Source of the DNA: an uncultured Bacilli bacterium | Lineage (GTDB): Bacteria; Bacillota_I; Bacilli_A; RF39; UBA660 | Reading direction: 5' to 3' | Assembly: GCA_944350315.1 (NCBI GenBank) | Contig: CALVON010000022.1 | Span: 9,281 to 73,280 of the forward strand | DNA length: 64,000 nt | Shown here: positions 33,128 through 53,080 of the stretch, one piece after another | Layout: each line of letters opens with the position of its first letter | How positions within the stretch are numbered: position 1 is the first letter of the stretch | Notes under the pieces: model-generated | Database searches by the model: none | Told to the model about the DNA's origin: nothing | Seen by the model: the letters and a program-made list of their open reading frames with translations, nothing else | Made by a program: the position numbers and the translations under genes

Positions 33128-33156
33128 AAAATATGTAATTATTAGTTACATATTTT
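33128..33156. terminator. Bidirectional terminator between convergent PBP and parB/noc-like genes
   Basis: AAATATGTAA-TTATTAG-TTACATATTT hairpin flanked by A and T runs. Confidence 0.55.
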
Positions 33157-34597
33157 ATAATTCTATTATAATACAGTGACCTGTATCATTATTATAAAGT
33201 TTATATTGAATTTGATTTTGATTTAAAAATTCTGTTACTTTAGTTAAATTATTTGTTGGTTCTTGTGTATTAGTTGTTACAGGAACTTCATAATTTGTTA
33301 AATCTGAAACTTGAGTCTGTGGTTCATTTTGATTTGGCTGTGTTTGAGTTTCAGATATAGAAAATAGTGGTGTATCTTGAACTATATTTTCTTGTATTGG
33401 TTGTTCTATGTTTGGCACATTTACAACTTCTTGGTTGAATAGCGGTGTATCTTGTGTACTTTGTTGTGAAGTATTTAAATTTTGATTAGCACTAACTTGT
33501 GAATTAATATCTTGATTTGACTGTTCTATATTTTGTTTTGGCATTTGATCCGCTTGATTTAAAGATGGTTCTTGTGGTGGTATAGTCTGTTGTGGTTCTT
33601 GTACTGAATTATTTACACCAATATTAAAATCTGGAATTGGATTTGTTGTAGAAAAATCAAATAATGGTTGTGTTTGTTCAATATTTTGCATAGATTGATT
33701 ATCTTGATTTTGTATGCCTGGTTGTGAAGACGGTTGCATAGGAGTTACATTTTGTGTCAATGATTCTCCTACTGGATTAGCCGTAGGCATTACTGTTTCA
33801 TTTATTGGTTGAGAATTAATACTTTGCATATTTAAAGTATTTAATGAGGCACTATTTGTTGGGTTCATTTGAGCATTATAGTTTGGAAAAAAGTTTCCAT
33901 TATTCATATTATCACTTTCCTTTTCTTCTTTTTTTGTTTCTTTACTACCAATTGAATTCATTATGTTACTAATAGTGGTTTCAATTGGAATTTTTTCATT
34001 ATTTTGTTTTTTAATAATTTCATTTAGTTCTTTAACAGATAATTTTTCATTAATTATTCTTTCTAACAATAATAATTTTTTTTCATTATCCAAAACACAT
34101 AATAGACTTCTAGCATGCCTTTCACTAATTTGTTGATTATTAAGCGCTTCTTTGATTTCTTTTGGTAATGTTAACAATCTTAATTTATTTGCTATTGTTG
34201 ATTGAGATTTTCCAATTTTATCTCCTAAATCTTTTTGTGTAACATTCGTAAGCTCTATTATTTGTTTAATAGATTCGGCTTCTTCAAGTGGGGTTAAATT
34301 TTCTCTTTGTAAATTTTCTATTAATGCCATTTCTGCCATTTTTATATCTTCAATATTCTTTATAATTGCCGGAACTTTTTTTAGGCCAATTTTTCTAGCA
34401 GCACGCCATCTTCTTTCTCCTGCTATTATTTCATATTTATCATTTGTTTTTCTTACTAATATTGGATTTATTATTCCATATTCTTTAATTGATTTAGCAA
34501 GACTATCTAATGATTCTTCATTAAATTCCTTCCTAGGTTGGTATTTATTTGGCATTAACTTATCTACATCGATTTCTATTATTTTTTCCTCTTGCAA
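33155..34597 (-). CDS. ParB/Noc-family CTP-switch DNA-binding protein with a Noc-type recognition helix and a long Q/N/P-rich C-terminal extension
   Basis: ParB N-domain boxes (YQPRK, GERRWRAA). HTH GKSQSTIANKLRLLTLP...ISERHARSLL. TTG start after AGAGGTGG, with an in-frame TAA 15 nt upstream. Residues ~215-450 are low complexity. The gene sits downstream of rsmG, the noc position in B. subtilis. Confidence 0.85.
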   Translation of the reverse strand: MQEEKIIEIDVDKLMPNKYQPRKEFNEESLDSLAKSIKEYGIINPILVRKTNDKYEIIAGERRWRAARKIGLKKVPAIIKNIEDIKMAEMALIENLQRENLTPLEEAESIKQIIELTNVTQKDLGDKIGKSQSTIANKLRLLTLPKEIKEALNNQQISERHARSLLCVLDNEKKLLLLERIINEKLSVKELNEIIKKQNNEKIPIETTISNIMNSIGSKETKKEEKESDNMNNGNFFPNYNAQMNPTNSASLNTLNMQSINSQPINETVMPTANPVGESLTQNVTPMQPSSQPGIQNQDNQSMQNIEQTQPLFDFSTTNPIPDFNIGVNNSVQEPQQTIPPQEPSLNQADQMPKQNIEQSNQDINSQVSANQNLNTSQQSTQDTPLFNQEVVNVPNIEQPIQENIVQDTPLFSISETQTQPNQNEPQTQVSDLTNYEVPVTTNTQEPTNNLTKVTEFLNQNQIQYKLYNNDTGHCIIIEL

Positions 34598-40573: not shown

Positions 40574-40696
40574 TTATGCGCAAAGTTTTTTTCTTTTTTT
40601 TGCTCTTCTTTTATTTAATACATTTCCTTTTATTCTAGCAAAAAATCCGTGTTTTTTTGCTTTTTTTCTTTTATTTGGTTGATAAGTTCTTTTCAT
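40574..40696 (-). CDS. rpmH: 50S ribosomal protein L34
   Basis: Not in the ORF track (40 aa). Manual translation gives MKRTYQPNKRKKAKKHGFFARIKGNVLNKRRAKKRKKLCA. RBS GGAGGTG upstream. The track ORF 40488-40682(+) is its antisense artefact. Confidence 0.9.
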   Translation of the reverse strand: MKRTYQPNKRKKAKKHGFFARIKGNVLNKRRAKKRKKLCA

Positions 40697-40838
40697 ATAT
40701 AACACCTCCAAGTTAAAATCTTCTTTATTATATAGAACTTAATAAATTATGTCAACAACTTTTTTATTTTTTTTCTTTTTTTCTTTTATTTTACATTTTT
40801 TTTTGTTATAATCTTTATAAGAGAATAGAGGGATAATT

Positions 40839-42599
40839 ATGTTTGAGAAAATTTTATCAATTACAAAAAATTATGCTATTGTTAAAATTATAAATAATAT
40901 TAATGATGACATATTAAATTATAATGTTATTCTTGAAGATAATTATAAAAAAATTTTAGGTGAAATTGATGAGATTATTAACGATGAAGTAAAAATTTCA
41001 TTTTTAGGTGAATTTATTAATGATAGATTTTATAGTGGAATAATTAGAAGACCTTCTTTATCTTCTACAGTTAGAATTATTAACAAACAAGAATTAGGAG
41101 AATTAGTTGGTGATAATGATAGTAGAACTATGATTCTTGGTCTTAGTCCTTTGTATAATAATTATCCAATAAAGATAAATATTAATGAAATGTTTAGTAA
41201 TCATATCGCTATTTTTGGAAATACAGGTTCAGGTAAGACTTGCGGTGTAGCAAGAATTATTCAAAATTTATTTAATATGAAAGATAAAGTTCCTTTTAAT
41301 GGAAATATATTTATATTTAATAATACTTCTGAATATGATTCCGCTTTTAGAGAAATTAATAAAATTAATAGTAATTTTAATTATAAATTGTATACAACCG
41401 ATAAAAGTAATTCTGATGGTGAAGAGATAAAGATTCCTTTATGGATTATGAGTGCTGATGATTATGCTAATTTATTAGATGTTACTGAATTTTTTCAAAT
41501 TAACATAATTGAAAAAATGTTAAGTATTGTTTCTATTTTTGCTAGAAATGATGAATATGCTAATAAATATAAAAATCATTTAATTGCTAAGGCAATAATT
41601 TCCGTTTTATATTCCAATCAGGTTCCTGCAAAAATAAGGGATCAAATTTTTAACATTTTACAAGACTGTTATACGAATGAAATTAATTTAGATGCTGAGG
41701 TTCCAGGAATAGGATATACTAGAGAATTTAGAAAATGTTTTGACATAGATAATAATGGTGATTTTGTAGAGAGAATATTAGTTACTAAATATATTCAAAG
41801 TTTTATTGTTAAAAATGAAAATTGGAATGAAGATTATGTTCCTATTTATTTTAATTTAGATCAATTAGAAAGTGCTTTGAATTTTACTCTAATCAGTGAA
41901 GGATTATTATTAAACGAAAAGTCTTATAGTGAAGCAATCGCTTTAAAAGTTAAATTACACTCTATAAACAATAGTTCAAATAAAAGATTTTTTGAAGTTA
42001 ATAATTTTATTTCGACTGAACAATTTATTAATTCTTTATTAACTACTAAAAATAATGGTAGGGCTCAAATTATAAATTTTGTTTTAGAGGATATTGATGA
42101 TCGTTTTGCAAAATCTTTGGTAAAAATATTATCAAGAATATTATTCAATTTTGTAAAAAAAATACAACCTAGAGGTGCTTTTCCAATTAATATTATGCTA
42201 GAAGAAGCACACAGATATGTTCAAAAAGATAGAGATACAGATATTTTAGGATATAATATTTTTGATAGAATTGCTAAAGAAGGAAGAAAATTTGGGGTAA
42301 TTATGAGTCTGATTTCTCAAAGACCTACAGAATTATCAGAAGTTGTTTTATCTCAATGTTCTAATTTTATTATTTTTAAATTAAATCATCCTAGTGATTT
42401 AGAATATATAAAGAAGATGGTACCAAATATTAGTTCTGATGTTATTGAAAAACAAAAATCCTTACAATCTGGAACTTGCGTTGTTTTTGGTAGAATAATG
42501 AGAATACCAATGATTGTTAAAATGCAAATGCCTAATCCAGAACCTCAAAGTTCAAATGCTTCTATATATGATAAATGGATGGTAGAACAAAAATATTAA
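40839..42599 (+). CDS. HerA/DUF87-like P-loop ATPase (HAS-barrel + FtsK/HerA-type ATPase), orphan
   Basis: 586 aa. Walker A FGNTGSGKT, Walker B-like INIMLEEAHRYV, and SLISQRPTELSEVVLSQCSNFIIFKL typical of DUF87/HerA. Extended -10 TGTTATAAT lies about 30 nt upstream. No NurA, SIR2 or nuclease partner adjacent. Confidence 0.7.
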   Translation: MFEKILSITKNYAIVKIINNINDDILNYNVILEDNYKKILGEIDEIINDEVKISFLGEFINDRFYSGIIRRPSLSSTVRIINKQELGELVGDNDSRTMILGLSPLYNNYPIKININEMFSNHIAIFGNTGSGKTCGVARIIQNLFNMKDKVPFNGNIFIFNNTSEYDSAFREINKINSNFNYKLYTTDKSNSDGEEIKIPLWIMSADDYANLLDVTEFFQINIIEKMLSIVSIFARNDEYANKYKNHLIAKAIISVLYSNQVPAKIRDQIFNILQDCYTNEINLDAEVPGIGYTREFRKCFDIDNNGDFVERILVTKYIQSFIVKNENWNEDYVPIYFNLDQLESALNFTLISEGLLLNEKSYSEAIALKVKLHSINNSSNKRFFEVNNFISTEQFINSLLTTKNNGRAQIINFVLEDIDDRFAKSLVKILSRILFNFVKKIQPRGAFPINIMLEEAHRYVQKDRDTDILGYNIFDRIAKEGRKFGVIMSLISQRPTELSEVVLSQCSNFIIFKLNHPSDLEYIKKMVPNISSDVIEKQKSLQSGTCVVFGRIMRIPMIVKMQMPNPEPQSSNASIYDKWMVEQKY

Positions 42600-42610
42600 T
42601 AACTTTTAAA

Positions 42611-42626
42611 TATTTCCCGGGAAATA
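42611..42626. promoter_or_regulatory. Perfect Noc-binding-site (NBS)-type palindrome TATTTCCCGGGAAATA
   Basis: 16-bp perfect palindrome identical to the published NBS consensus (ATTTCCCGGGAAAT core). The only CCCGGG in the 64 kb that I could find. Followed by a GGGAAAT half-site repeat and T6, so it may also act as the terminator of the herA-like gene. Confidence 0.6.
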
Positions 42627-42646
42627 ATTTGGGAAATATTTTTTAT

Positions 42647-42875
42647 TTATCAACAAAACTTGTTTGTTTTTTTTACTTATCAACAAGCACTGTTGATTTT
42701 TTTTATTCTATCAACAGGCATTGTTTATAACTTTTAATTACTTTTTCAACAAATTCTTATTTATCAACATGTTATGACACTTGTTGATAATTTTTTCAAC
42801 AAAAATAAAATTATATATAAATTTGTTGAAAACTCTTTTAATTACTTTATTTATATGGTATTATATTGTTGAAAA
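42647..42875. promoter_or_regulatory. oriC part 1: DnaA-box cluster upstream of dnaA
   Basis: Perfect TTATCAACA at 42647, 42677 and 42761 (+) and 42782 (-, TGTTGATAA). One-mismatch boxes at 42708, 42743 and 42793 (+) and 42824 and 42867 (-). Confidence 0.85.
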
Positions 42876-42979
42876 CTTGTTCATAACATGTTAATAACCT
42901 GTTTAAATAAAAAAAAATAATAGACAAATAAATTTTATATGTTAAAATAAAGTTGATGCTTGTAAGTGAGGTACTGTTT

Positions 42980-45778: not shown

Positions 45779-46228
45779 ATGTGCGAAATTGATTTATCAA
45801 CAGTTATGTTGATAGGAATTGATGATTATAATACTAAAATTATTAGTTATGAAAAAGAAGAAGTAATTAATAAAAATTCAAAAGAATTAATTAATTTATC
45901 ATGTAAATTTTTTGGTAGTAGTTTAAATGATAAGATTAGTGTAACAAAAAGATTAATAAATATTTCTTCAAAATCGCCAATTATTATAGAGGAATCTAGA
46001 AATATTATTTTTTTTCCATTAAAATCAACTAGAGAAAAAAATAATATATGGATATCTTTTAATAATTTAGAAAAGTATGAGAAAAATAATGATAATACAA
46101 TTTTATATTTTAAATGTGGAAAAATAGTTAAATTAAATTTTTCTTACTACATAATAGATAACCAAGTAACTAGAAGCTTAATTTTAGATTATGAATTGAA
46201 TAAAAGAAAAAAAAGTTTAGAAAAATAG
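45779..46228 (+). CDS. comK: ComK-family competence transcription factor (short form, 149 aa)
   Basis: By-eye alignment to B. subtilis ComK: SCKFFGSS vs SCRFFGSS, SKSPIIIEESRNIIFFPLKS vs SHKPPIMVDPSNQIFLFPTLS, NIWISF vs GWISH, IIDNQVTRS vs FENQVYRT. RBS AAGGAGGGGG. Confidence 0.75.
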   Translation: MCEIDLSTVMLIGIDDYNTKIISYEKEEVINKNSKELINLSCKFFGSSLNDKISVTKRLINISSKSPIIIEESRNIIFFPLKSTREKNNIWISFNNLEKYEKNNDNTILYFKCGKIVKLNFSYYIIDNQVTRSLILDYELNKRKKSLEK

Positions 46229-51933: not shown

Positions 51934-51975
51934 AACTCAATTATAATGTTCCACGTGGAACATTATAATTGAGTT
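51934..51975. promoter_or_regulatory. parS-1 (core 51947-51962) in a perfect 42-bp palindrome; also the gyrA terminator
   Basis: AACTCAATTATAATGTTCCAC|GTGGAACATTATAATTGAGTT followed by TTTTTTATTTTTTTTT. Confidence 0.85.
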
Positions 51976-52180
51976 TTTTATTTTTTTTTATAAAGAAATT
52001 TAAAGAATATTTATGTTAATAATTTATTATATTTATGTTTTTATATGTTGTAATATTTAATTTTTATATTTAATATTGTTTATATTATTATAATATTAGT
52101 TTATTTATATTCTGTTAGATATTATTATAGTTAATTTATTATCTTTATTTAATTTATTATAATGTGAAAATATATTATTC

Positions 52181-52340
52181 AAAAAAATTATTTTAGTTGT
52201 CAATTGTTAAATAATTATTTATGTGAATTACAATGTTCCACGTGGAACATTGTAATTTAAATTTTATTATTACAAATTTTGTTTATAAAATGTTTATATA
52301 TAAAGATTGTAATATTAAATTCATAATAAAATAATTATTT
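52181..52340 (+). repeat. Direct repeat unit A (~150 bp) containing parS-2
   Basis: Aligns by eye with 52826-52980. The central ~75 bp is near-identical (TGAATTACAATGTTCCACGTG[G/A]AACATTGTAATTTAAATTTTATTATTA...). Shared AAAAAAATTATTTTA start and ATTAAATT(C/T)ATAATAAAATAAT end. Confidence 0.7.
52226..52257. promoter_or_regulatory. parS-2 (core 52234-52249) in a perfect 32-bp palindrome
   Basis: AATTACAATGTTCCAC|GTGGAACATTGTAATT. Confidence 0.85.
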
Positions 52341-52359
52341 TATTTATATATATTTTCTT

Positions 52360-52379
52360 AATGTTCCACGTGGAACATT
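52360..52379. promoter_or_regulatory. parS-3 (core 52362-52377) in a perfect 20-bp palindrome
   Basis: AATGTTCCAC|GTGGAACATT. Confidence 0.85.
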
Positions 52380-52540
52380 CCAGTTGAAATTTTTTTCTCT
52401 AAAGAGTAAAAAAAATATTATATTATTTACAGTTGATTAAGTATTATTTTAGTTGTTTTATTATATATATTTAGTAAATAGTATATATTTTATACTATAT
52501 TTATTTAAATGCCGTGTTTTTACAATTCATGTAATATTAG

Positions 52541-52568
52541 TTATAATGTTCCACGTGGAACATTATAA
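52541..52568. promoter_or_regulatory. parS-4 (core 52547-52562) in a perfect 28-bp palindrome
   Basis: TTATAATGTTCCAC|GTGGAACATTATAA. Confidence 0.85.
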
Positions 52569-52610
52569 AATGCAGATAAAAATTTTTAATAAGTTATATT
52601 GAATTTATTA

Positions 52611-52639
52611 TTGCGTTTTTTGATATTTTAGTATATAAT
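52611..52639 (+). promoter_or_regulatory. Sigma-A-type promoter of ffs
   Basis: TTGCGT (-35), 17-nt spacer, TATAAT (-10). The predicted start at about 52646 coincides with the 5' end of the SRP RNA helix. Confidence 0.5.
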
Positions 52640-52645
52640 TATGTT

Positions 52646-52716
52646 GTGCAACAATAATATAGAAATCAAGTCAGGATCGGAAGATAGCAGCTTTAACTAT
52701 TAATTATTGTGTGCAC
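52646..52716 (+). ncRNA. ffs: Small (4.5S-like, ~71 nt) signal recognition particle RNA
   Basis: Domain IV motif AAGUCAGGAUCGGAAGAUAGCAGCUU (compare GUCAGGUCCGGAAGGAAGCAGC) with a GGAA tetraloop closed by AUC/GAU. Closing helix GUGCAACAAUAAU / AUUAUUGUGUGCAC, followed by T5. Position upstream of tadA-dnaX approximates the B. subtilis tadA-scr-dnaX region, although scr lies between tadA and dnaX there. Confidence 0.75.
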
Positions 52717-52748
52717 TTTTTATATGTTCCACGTGGAACATATAAAAA
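52717..52748. promoter_or_regulatory. parS-5 (core 52725-52740) in a perfect 32-bp palindrome abutting the ffs 3' end
   Basis: TTTTTATATGTTCCAC|GTGGAACATATAAAAA. Confidence 0.85.
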
Positions 52749-52825
52749 TAAACGTCAATTAATATTTTTTAATTAATTTATTTAAAATTATTATTATGTG
52801 TATTTAAATTGTTATAATATAAAAT

Positions 52826-52980
52826 AAAAAAATTATTTTAATTATTAAATTGATATTTATATGAATTACAATGTTCCACGTGAAACATTGTAATTTAAAT
52901 TTTATTATTATAATTCTTGTTTATTACAGGTTGATGTATAGAAAATATAGTATTAAATTTATAATAAAATAATATATAAT
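52826..52980 (+). repeat. Direct repeat unit B (~150 bp) containing parS-6
   Basis: Partner of 52181-52340. Confidence 0.7.
52864..52895. promoter_or_regulatory. parS-6 (core 52872-52887, TGTTCCACGTGAAACA)
   Basis: AATTACAATGTTCCAC|GTGAAACATTGTAATT. One arm mismatch yields the asymmetric B. subtilis-type parS. Confidence 0.85.
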
Positions 52981-53048
52981 ATTTGTAAAATATGTATAAC
53001 ATTTTTTTTGTTGTGTTAAATTTGTGCTTTTAGATTTTATAAATATAT

Positions 53049-53080
53049 TTATTTAATGTTCCACGTGAAACATTAAATAA
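53049..53080. promoter_or_regulatory. parS-7 (core 53057-53072, TGTTCCACGTGAAACA)
   Basis: TTATTTAATGTTCCAC|GTGAAACATTAAATAA. One arm mismatch. Confidence 0.85.

Follow-up and report, generated by a model that had tools for sequence, protein, structure and literature searches.

A partner-less HerA-clade ATPase, derived in all likelihood from SIR2-linked motors, is a near-core gene of RF39 Bacilli

Introduction

We describe a HerA-clade ATPase, HerA_A, which we interpret as a stand-alone motor descended from SIR2-HerA and now established as a duplicated, near-core housekeeping gene in the order RF39. Its gene was found in a 64,000-nucleotide stretch of DNA from an uncultured member of that order (contig CALVON010000022.1, positions 9,281 to 73,280; hereafter the window), where an uninterrupted open reading frame (ORF) of 586 amino acids lies between rpmH and the cluster of DnaA boxes upstream of dnaA. 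It thus splits the rpmH-dnaA junction, as had been claimed in an original prediction made from the sequence alone. We put the probability of this reading as a whole at roughly one half: its classification and evolutionary part is held with high confidence, while a housekeeping DNA-motor function, argued by analogy with characterised HerAs, is held with moderate confidence.

Bacterial HerA ATPases are understood as one half of two-part machines, the other half being NurA in repair, and SIR2 or DUF4297 in phage defence. Here a whole HerA clade is found without NurA, SIR2 or DUF4297, and two copies are kept in genomes of around 1 Mb. A literature search found no paper tying HerA to RF39 and none on a partner-less core bacterial HerA; the clade is apparently undescribed so far. 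If our interpretation is right, immune hardware has been turned into housekeeping hardware. The clade would then exemplify clearly how an ATPase of immunity can enter core chromosome biology, and it would point to a DNA transaction still to be named in very common uncultured bacteria of the human gut. There is also a warning for the annotation of defence systems, in that the PADLOC HerA model matches at 1e-106 where no system is present.

Results and Discussion

HerA_A belongs to the HerA clade

Judged from its sequence and predicted structure, HerA_A is a true HerA-clade ATPase of the FtsK-HerA superfamily, built of three domains. The Pfam model PF01935 (DUF87/HerA central domain) matched at 1.2e-19 (71.7 bits, cut-off 23.2) and the PADLOC HerA model PDLC04102 at 5.7e-106 over nearly the full length of the protein. 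Matches to the NCBIfam HerA equivalogs, anti-phage and archaeal, ranged from 1e-31 to 1e-46, far below their cut-offs; for the HerA_antiphage models the scores were 158.9 bits against a cut-off of 850 and 150.5 against 800. All sequence matches in the PDB were HerA proteins, the best being 9c1m, the HerA of HerA-DUF4297 (4.5e-46), with HerA of the Sulfolobus or archaeal type more distant (8e-32). The FtsK_SpoIIIE model PF01580 yielded 25 bits over 55 residues round the P-loop, covering profile positions 13-67 of 221.

An AlphaFold2 monomer model, calculated from a 26-sequence family alignment, had a mean predicted local distance difference test score (pLDDT) of 87 and a predicted TM score (pTM) of 0.85. 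When it was compared with known structures using Foldseek, the top 50 matches were all HerA proteins, headed by the S. aureus SIR2-HerA ATPase (8yhx, TM 0.75-0.78), and no FtsK, VirB4 or YjgR structure was among those 50. The question of clade membership that accompanied the original prediction is thereby answered in favour of HerA, and the HAS-barrel-like N-terminus and HerA motifs that it had proposed are seen in the model and in the alignment. The predicted structure comprises an N-terminal β-barrel (approximately residues 1-80, strands within 2-80), a RecA-like core and a helical-bundle insertion (approximately 206-401).

In all 26 family members aligned, drawn from both paralogs, G127-K133 of the Walker A motif (127-134, GNTGSGKT), E455-Y460 (LEEAHRY) of the Walker B motif (451-460) and Q494-R495-P496 of the QRP motif (494-496) are invariant, as is a KEGRK motif across the two paralogs. 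The QRP motif is presumably the arginine-finger position. Towards the C-terminus a PNPEP...W segment aligns to the HerA of HerA-DUF4297. By analogy with its relatives, HerA_A may be expected to form a hexameric ring that translocates double-stranded DNA (dsDNA).

A further motif, G-x2-R-x4-C-x3-D-x2-G (GYTREFRKCFDIDNNG), was noted at residues 292-307 (window approximately 41712-41759), in the helical-bundle domain. It is invariant, or nearly so, in the partner-less clade and not conserved in the SIR2-linked relative P0136. Longer family members carry 100-360 extra residues as low-complexity tails, rich in Ser, Asn and Thr or acidic, in which there is no domain, and a Rosetta-stone fusion was therefore rejected. 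Among the A-type orthologs of other genera that have such tails (P0122, P0123, P0129 and P0125; many of 650-900 residues), these are predicted to be disordered and contain short repeats (NPALDFG, LVxF) and acidic-hydrophobic C-termini. In P0129 the Walker A and B motifs are degenerate. The HerA_A of the window has no tail.

No partner was found

No partner gene adjoins HerA_A, as originally predicted, and the search for one elsewhere in the source genome was also negative. The window is one stretch of a 95%-complete metagenome-assembled genome (1.18 Mb, 46 contigs), a caveat that applies to each absence reported here. NurA (PF09376) was absent from all 26 genomes in a family search in which control genomes were positive. 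SIR2_2 (PF13289) had no match in the source genome, nor in 24 of the 26 genomes searched, its controls again being positive, and Cap4/DUF4297 (PF14130) was absent from the source genome and from 25 of the 26. When SIR2 proteins neighbouring the closest outgroup HerAs were compared with the source genome by tblastn, nothing was found below E 0.39. Finally, clustering of all flanking ORFs over 22 HerA loci revealed only housekeeping genes and no constant neighbour, so that a conserved neighbour as hidden partner was rejected.

One relative (G015, C6:48147-50634) has a third HerA, 25% identical to HerA_A, directly 3' of a SIR2_2 gene. As the one exception it provides a control: a true, sporadic SIR2-HerA defence pair, present in addition to both core copies.

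A vertically inherited, near-core gene with two ancient paralogs

Of the 201 high-quality genomes searched from the order, 190 carry the family; they represent 94 of 98 genera, and most have two copies. Outside the order it is rare: among 300 genomes spread over the class Bacilli, only one from outside the home family carries a partner-less HerA, and a library of 1.8 billion representatives contains only around 12 close clusters (50% identity, E below 1e-100). Plasmids and phages yielded no close relative; the best plasmid match was a Listeria SIR2+DUF87 pair with 32% identity. The family is thus a vertically inherited, near-core gene of RF39, an order of small-genome gut Bacilli.

The second copy of the source genome, HerA_B, is flanked by pyrH and sufC on contig C13 and is 39% identical to HerA_A; the two are ancient paralogs within the partner-less clade. 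Ratios of nonsynonymous to synonymous substitution rates (dN/dS) for HerA_A within the genus were 0.07-0.24, values indicative of purifying selection, and its amino-acid identity of 72-85%, compared with 62-82% for DnaA at the same loci, shows that it is about as conserved as DnaA. In two relatives, two A-type genes were seen in tandem (G176:C7:10152-13671 and G159:C6:9638-13158).

Probable descent from SIR2-linked HerAs

In a maximum-likelihood tree, obtained by a quick search with support from the SH-like approximate likelihood ratio test (SH-aLRT) only and rooted with more distant HerAs, all partner-less HerAs fall into a single clade (SH-aLRT 100%, stem length 0.68) nested among SIR2-linked HerAs. 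The earliest branch of this clade is the copy from the other Bacilli family, after which come clade A (support 99) and clade B (85). P0136, P0134 and P0144, the sister lineages, each represent a SIR2_2-HerA pair located in a defence island, among restriction-modification, GmrSD, Mrr or PLD-helicase genes. By sequence, the closest proteins beyond the clade are SIR2-linked HerAs, with identities of 31-37%.

The alignment shows that, compared with these SIR2-linked relatives, every partner-less HerA is without three segments: two of approximately 10 and 16-24 residues inside the N-terminal barrel and one of approximately 15-20 residues just after it. In the S. aureus SIR2-HerA complex a protruding β3-β4 hairpin and the β6-β7 loop of the barrel hold SIR2, and removal of the HerA N-terminus abolishes SIR2 binding (PMC11514289). 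The lost barrel segments would appear, on the basis of the alignment, to correspond to these docking elements. We conclude with high confidence that the partner-less clade descends from anti-phage SIR2-HerA motors and has lost the effector.

The position at oriC is derived

Where A-type orthologs share at least 65% identity with HerA_A, in its own genus and several neighbouring genera, the gene lies between yidC-rnpA-rpmH and dnaA-dnaN as in the window. Orthologs at 51-55% identity are instead found inside the signal recognition particle (SRP) operon, 14-28 bp 3' of ylxM, in the order ftsY-ylxM-HerA and often then ffh. Most A-type orthologs occupy the SRP operon or other sites, not oriC. In nine of 10 other genera the junction is empty, rpmH and dnaA being direct neighbours 300-500 bp apart, which agrees with the earlier view of this junction as otherwise canonical. 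In the source genome the SRP operon is split, with ftsY-ylxM on contig C1 followed by unrelated genes and ffh alone at C22:2968. Taken together, the SRP-operon orthologs, the empty junctions and the split operon indicate that HerA_A moved, or that rearrangements left it behind, in one sub-branch.

The A copy therefore probably resided earlier in the SRP operon (ftsY-ylxM-HerA-ffh), and its location at oriC is a derived state seen in a single sub-branch. Conservation of the position, proposed earlier as a check, thus holds for close relatives but not family-wide. B-type copies adjoin yqeG-yqeH, sepF-divIVA, prsA or pyrH/sufC and are never at oriC. The theme common to all these contexts is that of housekeeping, growth-linked neighbourhoods rather than of oriC.

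Comparison with known systems

SIR2-HerA (Nezha) is represented by S. aureus SaHerA (8yho/8yhx), by the Paenibacillus (8wiv, 8wld) and E. coli (8j4u, 8sub) complexes and by the SIR2+DUF87 pairs of Listeria plasmids. HerA_A shares with these the barrel, the RecA-like core and an extended helical bundle, together with the Walker A, Walker B (EEAH), KEGRK and QRP motifs. It differs in having no SIR2 gene, whether adjacent or anywhere in the genome, in the three clade-wide deletions that affect the barrel or adjoin it, and in being a core, vertically inherited and duplicated gene in housekeeping contexts where SIR2-HerA is a patchily distributed gene of defence islands. The HerA of HerA-DUF4297 (9c1m, 8xau, 8ziq; bioRxiv 10.1101/2024.10.24.620088) also aligns well, both in the ATPase core and in the PNPEP...W segment; here, however, the DUF4297/Cap4-type nuclease is lacking and the tree places the partner-less clade with the SIR2-linked HerAs.

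HerA-NurA, which acts in end resection (Sulfolobus HerA, 4d2i; Deinococcus NurA-HerA, PMC9960219), has the HerA-type hexameric translocase fold and a housekeeping role on DNA, and so offers a functional analogy for a non-defence HerA. In contrast to that system, NurA is missing from all 26 genomes and AddAB is available for end resection. FtsK/SpoIIIE are dsDNA ring ATPases of the same superfamily, to which HerA_A has its weak P-loop match, but a Pfam scan found no gamma domain in HerA_A and the genome encodes a separate FtsK of 745 residues (G000:C13:21286-23523, G000 denoting the source genome).

That genome retains its other motors too. AddB-AddA, RuvB, RecG and SMC are all present, with candidates for PriA, PcrA, RecD2 and Mfd recognised by motif and length only. 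A canonical soj-spo0J pair is found at C29:7413-9090, next to secE-nusG-rplK and away from the origin region, so the earlier statement that ParA/Soj is missing was wrong. The presence of FtsK, AddAB, RuvB, RecG, SMC and Soj-Spo0J means that HerA adds to the usual motors, and the idea that it replaces a lost one was rejected.

A proposed history and its weak points

The history that we favour would run as follows. A SIR2-associated defence HerA would have lost its effector, and also three loop segments within the barrel or adjoining it. The partner-less protein would then have duplicated, giving A and B, and become a vertically inherited core gene of the order, the A copy probably residing within ftsY-ylxM-HerA-ffh, the SRP operon. 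That operon broke up in the sub-branch of the source genome, and HerA_A now sits between rpmH and the DnaA boxes, carrying a promoter and terminator of its own. As in solved relatives, the HerA_A ring would use ATP to move along or unwind dsDNA, in this case without an effector, and a former defence motor would now serve chromosome metabolism in some constitutive, growth-linked capacity. The place beside oriC probably gives HerA_A high, growth-coupled expression rather than an origin-specific role.

A bolder version of this history is more tentative, and we rate it at somewhat less than even odds. It holds that a SIR2-HerA lost its NADase, trimmed the docking barrel and duplicated to become a housekeeping DNA motor that defines the RF39-type lineage of gut Bacilli and that, in the CAG:914/CAG:762 sub-branch, moved next to oriC and might have gained an origin-proximal task.

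Several observations weigh against a recruited housekeeping motor. The family is missing from 11 of the 201 genomes, including both sampled genomes of one genus, and HerA is therefore not strictly essential. No particular housekeeping task can be named for it, and it is not an obvious replacement for any motor checked. A non-adjacent or unrecognised partner is possible. On the evolutionary side, the nesting among SIR2-linked HerAs hinges on the distant-HerA rooting and on a quick SH-aLRT tree, in which the node joining P0136 to the partner-less clade has 87% support.

Alternative explanations

HerA_A might be an anti-phage ATPase kept as a core gene, its effector being distant or unrecognisable or the ATPase itself acting directly on invading DNA. 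Beyond the clade, its closest relatives all belong to SIR2-HerA defence pairs, and anti-phage HerA models and defence HerAs provide, respectively, the best family-model and solved-structure matches. We nevertheless consider this unlikely, since the family is near-universal in the order with two old paralogs, while a true SIR2-HerA occurs in only one of 26 relatives. HerA, moreover, is never in a defence island but at rpmH/dnaA, in the SRP operon or beside pyrH/sufC, sepF-divIVA or yqeG-yqeH. The DnaA-like conservation and low dN/dS are without any sign of an arms race, the NCBIfam score of 159 bits compares with an equivalog cut-off of 850, and barrel loops have been lost in what is probably the region where SIR2 docks in S. 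aureus. The gene's cross-genus conservation at its site and its place as a core gene of the order likewise make it scarcely credible that HerA_A is recent cargo of a mobile element or defence island at the origin. The interruption of a normally compact junction by a gene with its own promoter and terminator might suggest such cargo; the GC content nevertheless matches that of the flanks, integrase, repeats and tRNA are lacking at the site, and close plasmid or phage relatives are lacking too. A mobile-element origin was taken as refuted by the conservation of the site across genera and the 190/201 distribution. Neither absence from the junction in relatives combined with mobile-element hallmarks nor a partner elsewhere, both raised beforehand as other accounts of the gene, was found.

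A different possibility is that the motor acts on a substrate other than the chromosome, as a secretion, membrane-targeting or nucleic-acid-transfer ATPase comparable to VirB4 or TdtA. The FtsK-HerA superfamily does include ATPases for secretion and DNA donation, TdtA of Thermus being presented as one of the latter (PMC5365140), and in many genera the A copy follows ylxM closely in the SRP operon. Given that neither a transmembrane segment nor a membrane partner was seen, that all structural neighbours are DNA-translocating HerAs, that B copies, like those A copies that have moved, remain conserved outside the SRP context, and that the genome has VirB4-, VirD4- and VirB11-like genes of its own, we regard this as distinctly improbable. 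The origin-linked function originally proposed, in which HerA_A would be a translocase dedicated to segregation, remodelling or protection of the origin together with a Noc/ParB-like protein and DnaA, is very improbable and was not supported. It is true that the order rpmH-HerA-DnaA boxes-dnaA is kept in the genus and several neighbouring genera, down to 65% identity, that an NBS-type palindrome (described below) lies 3' of the gene here and in four of 13 relatives, and that a ParB-family paralog and seven parS-like sites share the window. The position is, however, derived within one sub-branch, and in nine of 10 other genera no gene separates rpmH from dnaA and HerA_A lies at another site; no B paralog is found at oriC; and the palindrome, which overlaps a terminator-like hairpin, is absent from nine of 13 syntenic loci. 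Nor can the case be built on a lack of ParA: with soj-spo0J, FtsK and SMC all encoded, there is no segregation gap for HerA to fill. A stand-alone motor of SIR2-HerA descent with a housekeeping role therefore remains the reading that we prefer.

The locus and its surroundings

Features of the locus are collected in Table 1. The extended -10 promoter claimed originally was confirmed by direct reading; there is no good -35 element, and the poor -35 hexamer is the reason why this promoter is not listed in the consensus promoter scan. The divergent rpmH is separated from HerA_A by 127 bp. Downstream, the gene abuts a palindrome and the DnaA boxes as had been described. The palindrome, ATTTCCCGGGAAAT, which we take to match the B. 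subtilis Noc-binding-site (NBS) consensus, occurs once in the whole genome. It is found 3' of HerA in four of 13 syntenic relatives and absent in nine. Given its single genomic copy, this incidence and its overlap with the terminator-like hairpin, it was rejected as a HerA-linked site. The density of TTATCAACA-like sites over the window is approximately 0.5 per 250 bp, compared with the 12 of the cluster.

Table 1. Features of the HerA_A locus, in window coordinates
Feature	Position	Strand	Source
HerA_A, partner-less-clade HerA/DUF87 ATPase	40839..42599	+	ORF list, profiles, model
Extended -10 TGTTATAAT, 27 bp 5' of the HerA_A start codon	40804..40812	+	direct sequence reading
Shine-Dalgarno-like GAGGG, 6 nt 5' of the HerA_A ATG	40828..40832	+	direct sequence reading
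Terminator-like hairpin then T-run, directly 3' of the HerA_A stop	42608..42641	+	terminator scan
14-bp palindrome ATTTCCCGGGAAAT, inside the terminator-like hairpin	42612..42625	+	sequence reading
DnaA-box cluster, 12 TTATCAACA-like sites, 4 exact; dnaA-upstream part of oriC	42647..42897	.	site scan
rpmH (ribosomal protein L34), divergent from HerA_A	40574..40711	-	ORF list
rpmH promoter, perfect TTGACA-17-TATAAT	40755-40727	-	consensus promoter scan
dnaA	42953..44341	+	ORF list
dnaN, after dnaA	44489-45604	+	

The gene order of the window is mnmG-mnmE-jag-yidC-rnpA-rpmH on the minus strand, then dnaA-dnaN-(comK-like)-recF-gyrB-gyrA on the plus strand, and the GC content of HerA_A is that of the flanking DNA. 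The ORF between dnaN and recF (45779-46228) belongs to the ComK family (PF06338, 1.2e-30). GC skew changes from positive (1-24 kb) to negative (25-41 kb) and returns to positive from 41 kb, tracking gene orientation; only the second switch, near 41 kb, falls at oriC.

Next to rsmG is a ParB-family gene of 480 amino acids (33155-34597, minus strand), a second and longer paralog of the one in the soj-spo0J pair. Seven parS-like 16-mers (TGTTCCACGTG[G/A]AACA) are clustered after gyrA at 51947-53072 (G000:C22:61227-62352), in a very AT-rich gap (GC 0.15), and are the only parS-like sites in the genome within two mismatches. Elsewhere in the genome, a set resembling a type IV secretion system (G000:C19:24428-31129 and C5:18600-20081) comprises a VirB4/TraG-type ATPase of 604 residues, a VirD4-type coupling protein of 794 residues and a VirB11-like T2SSE ATPase, the first two of which are apparently conserved across the genus.

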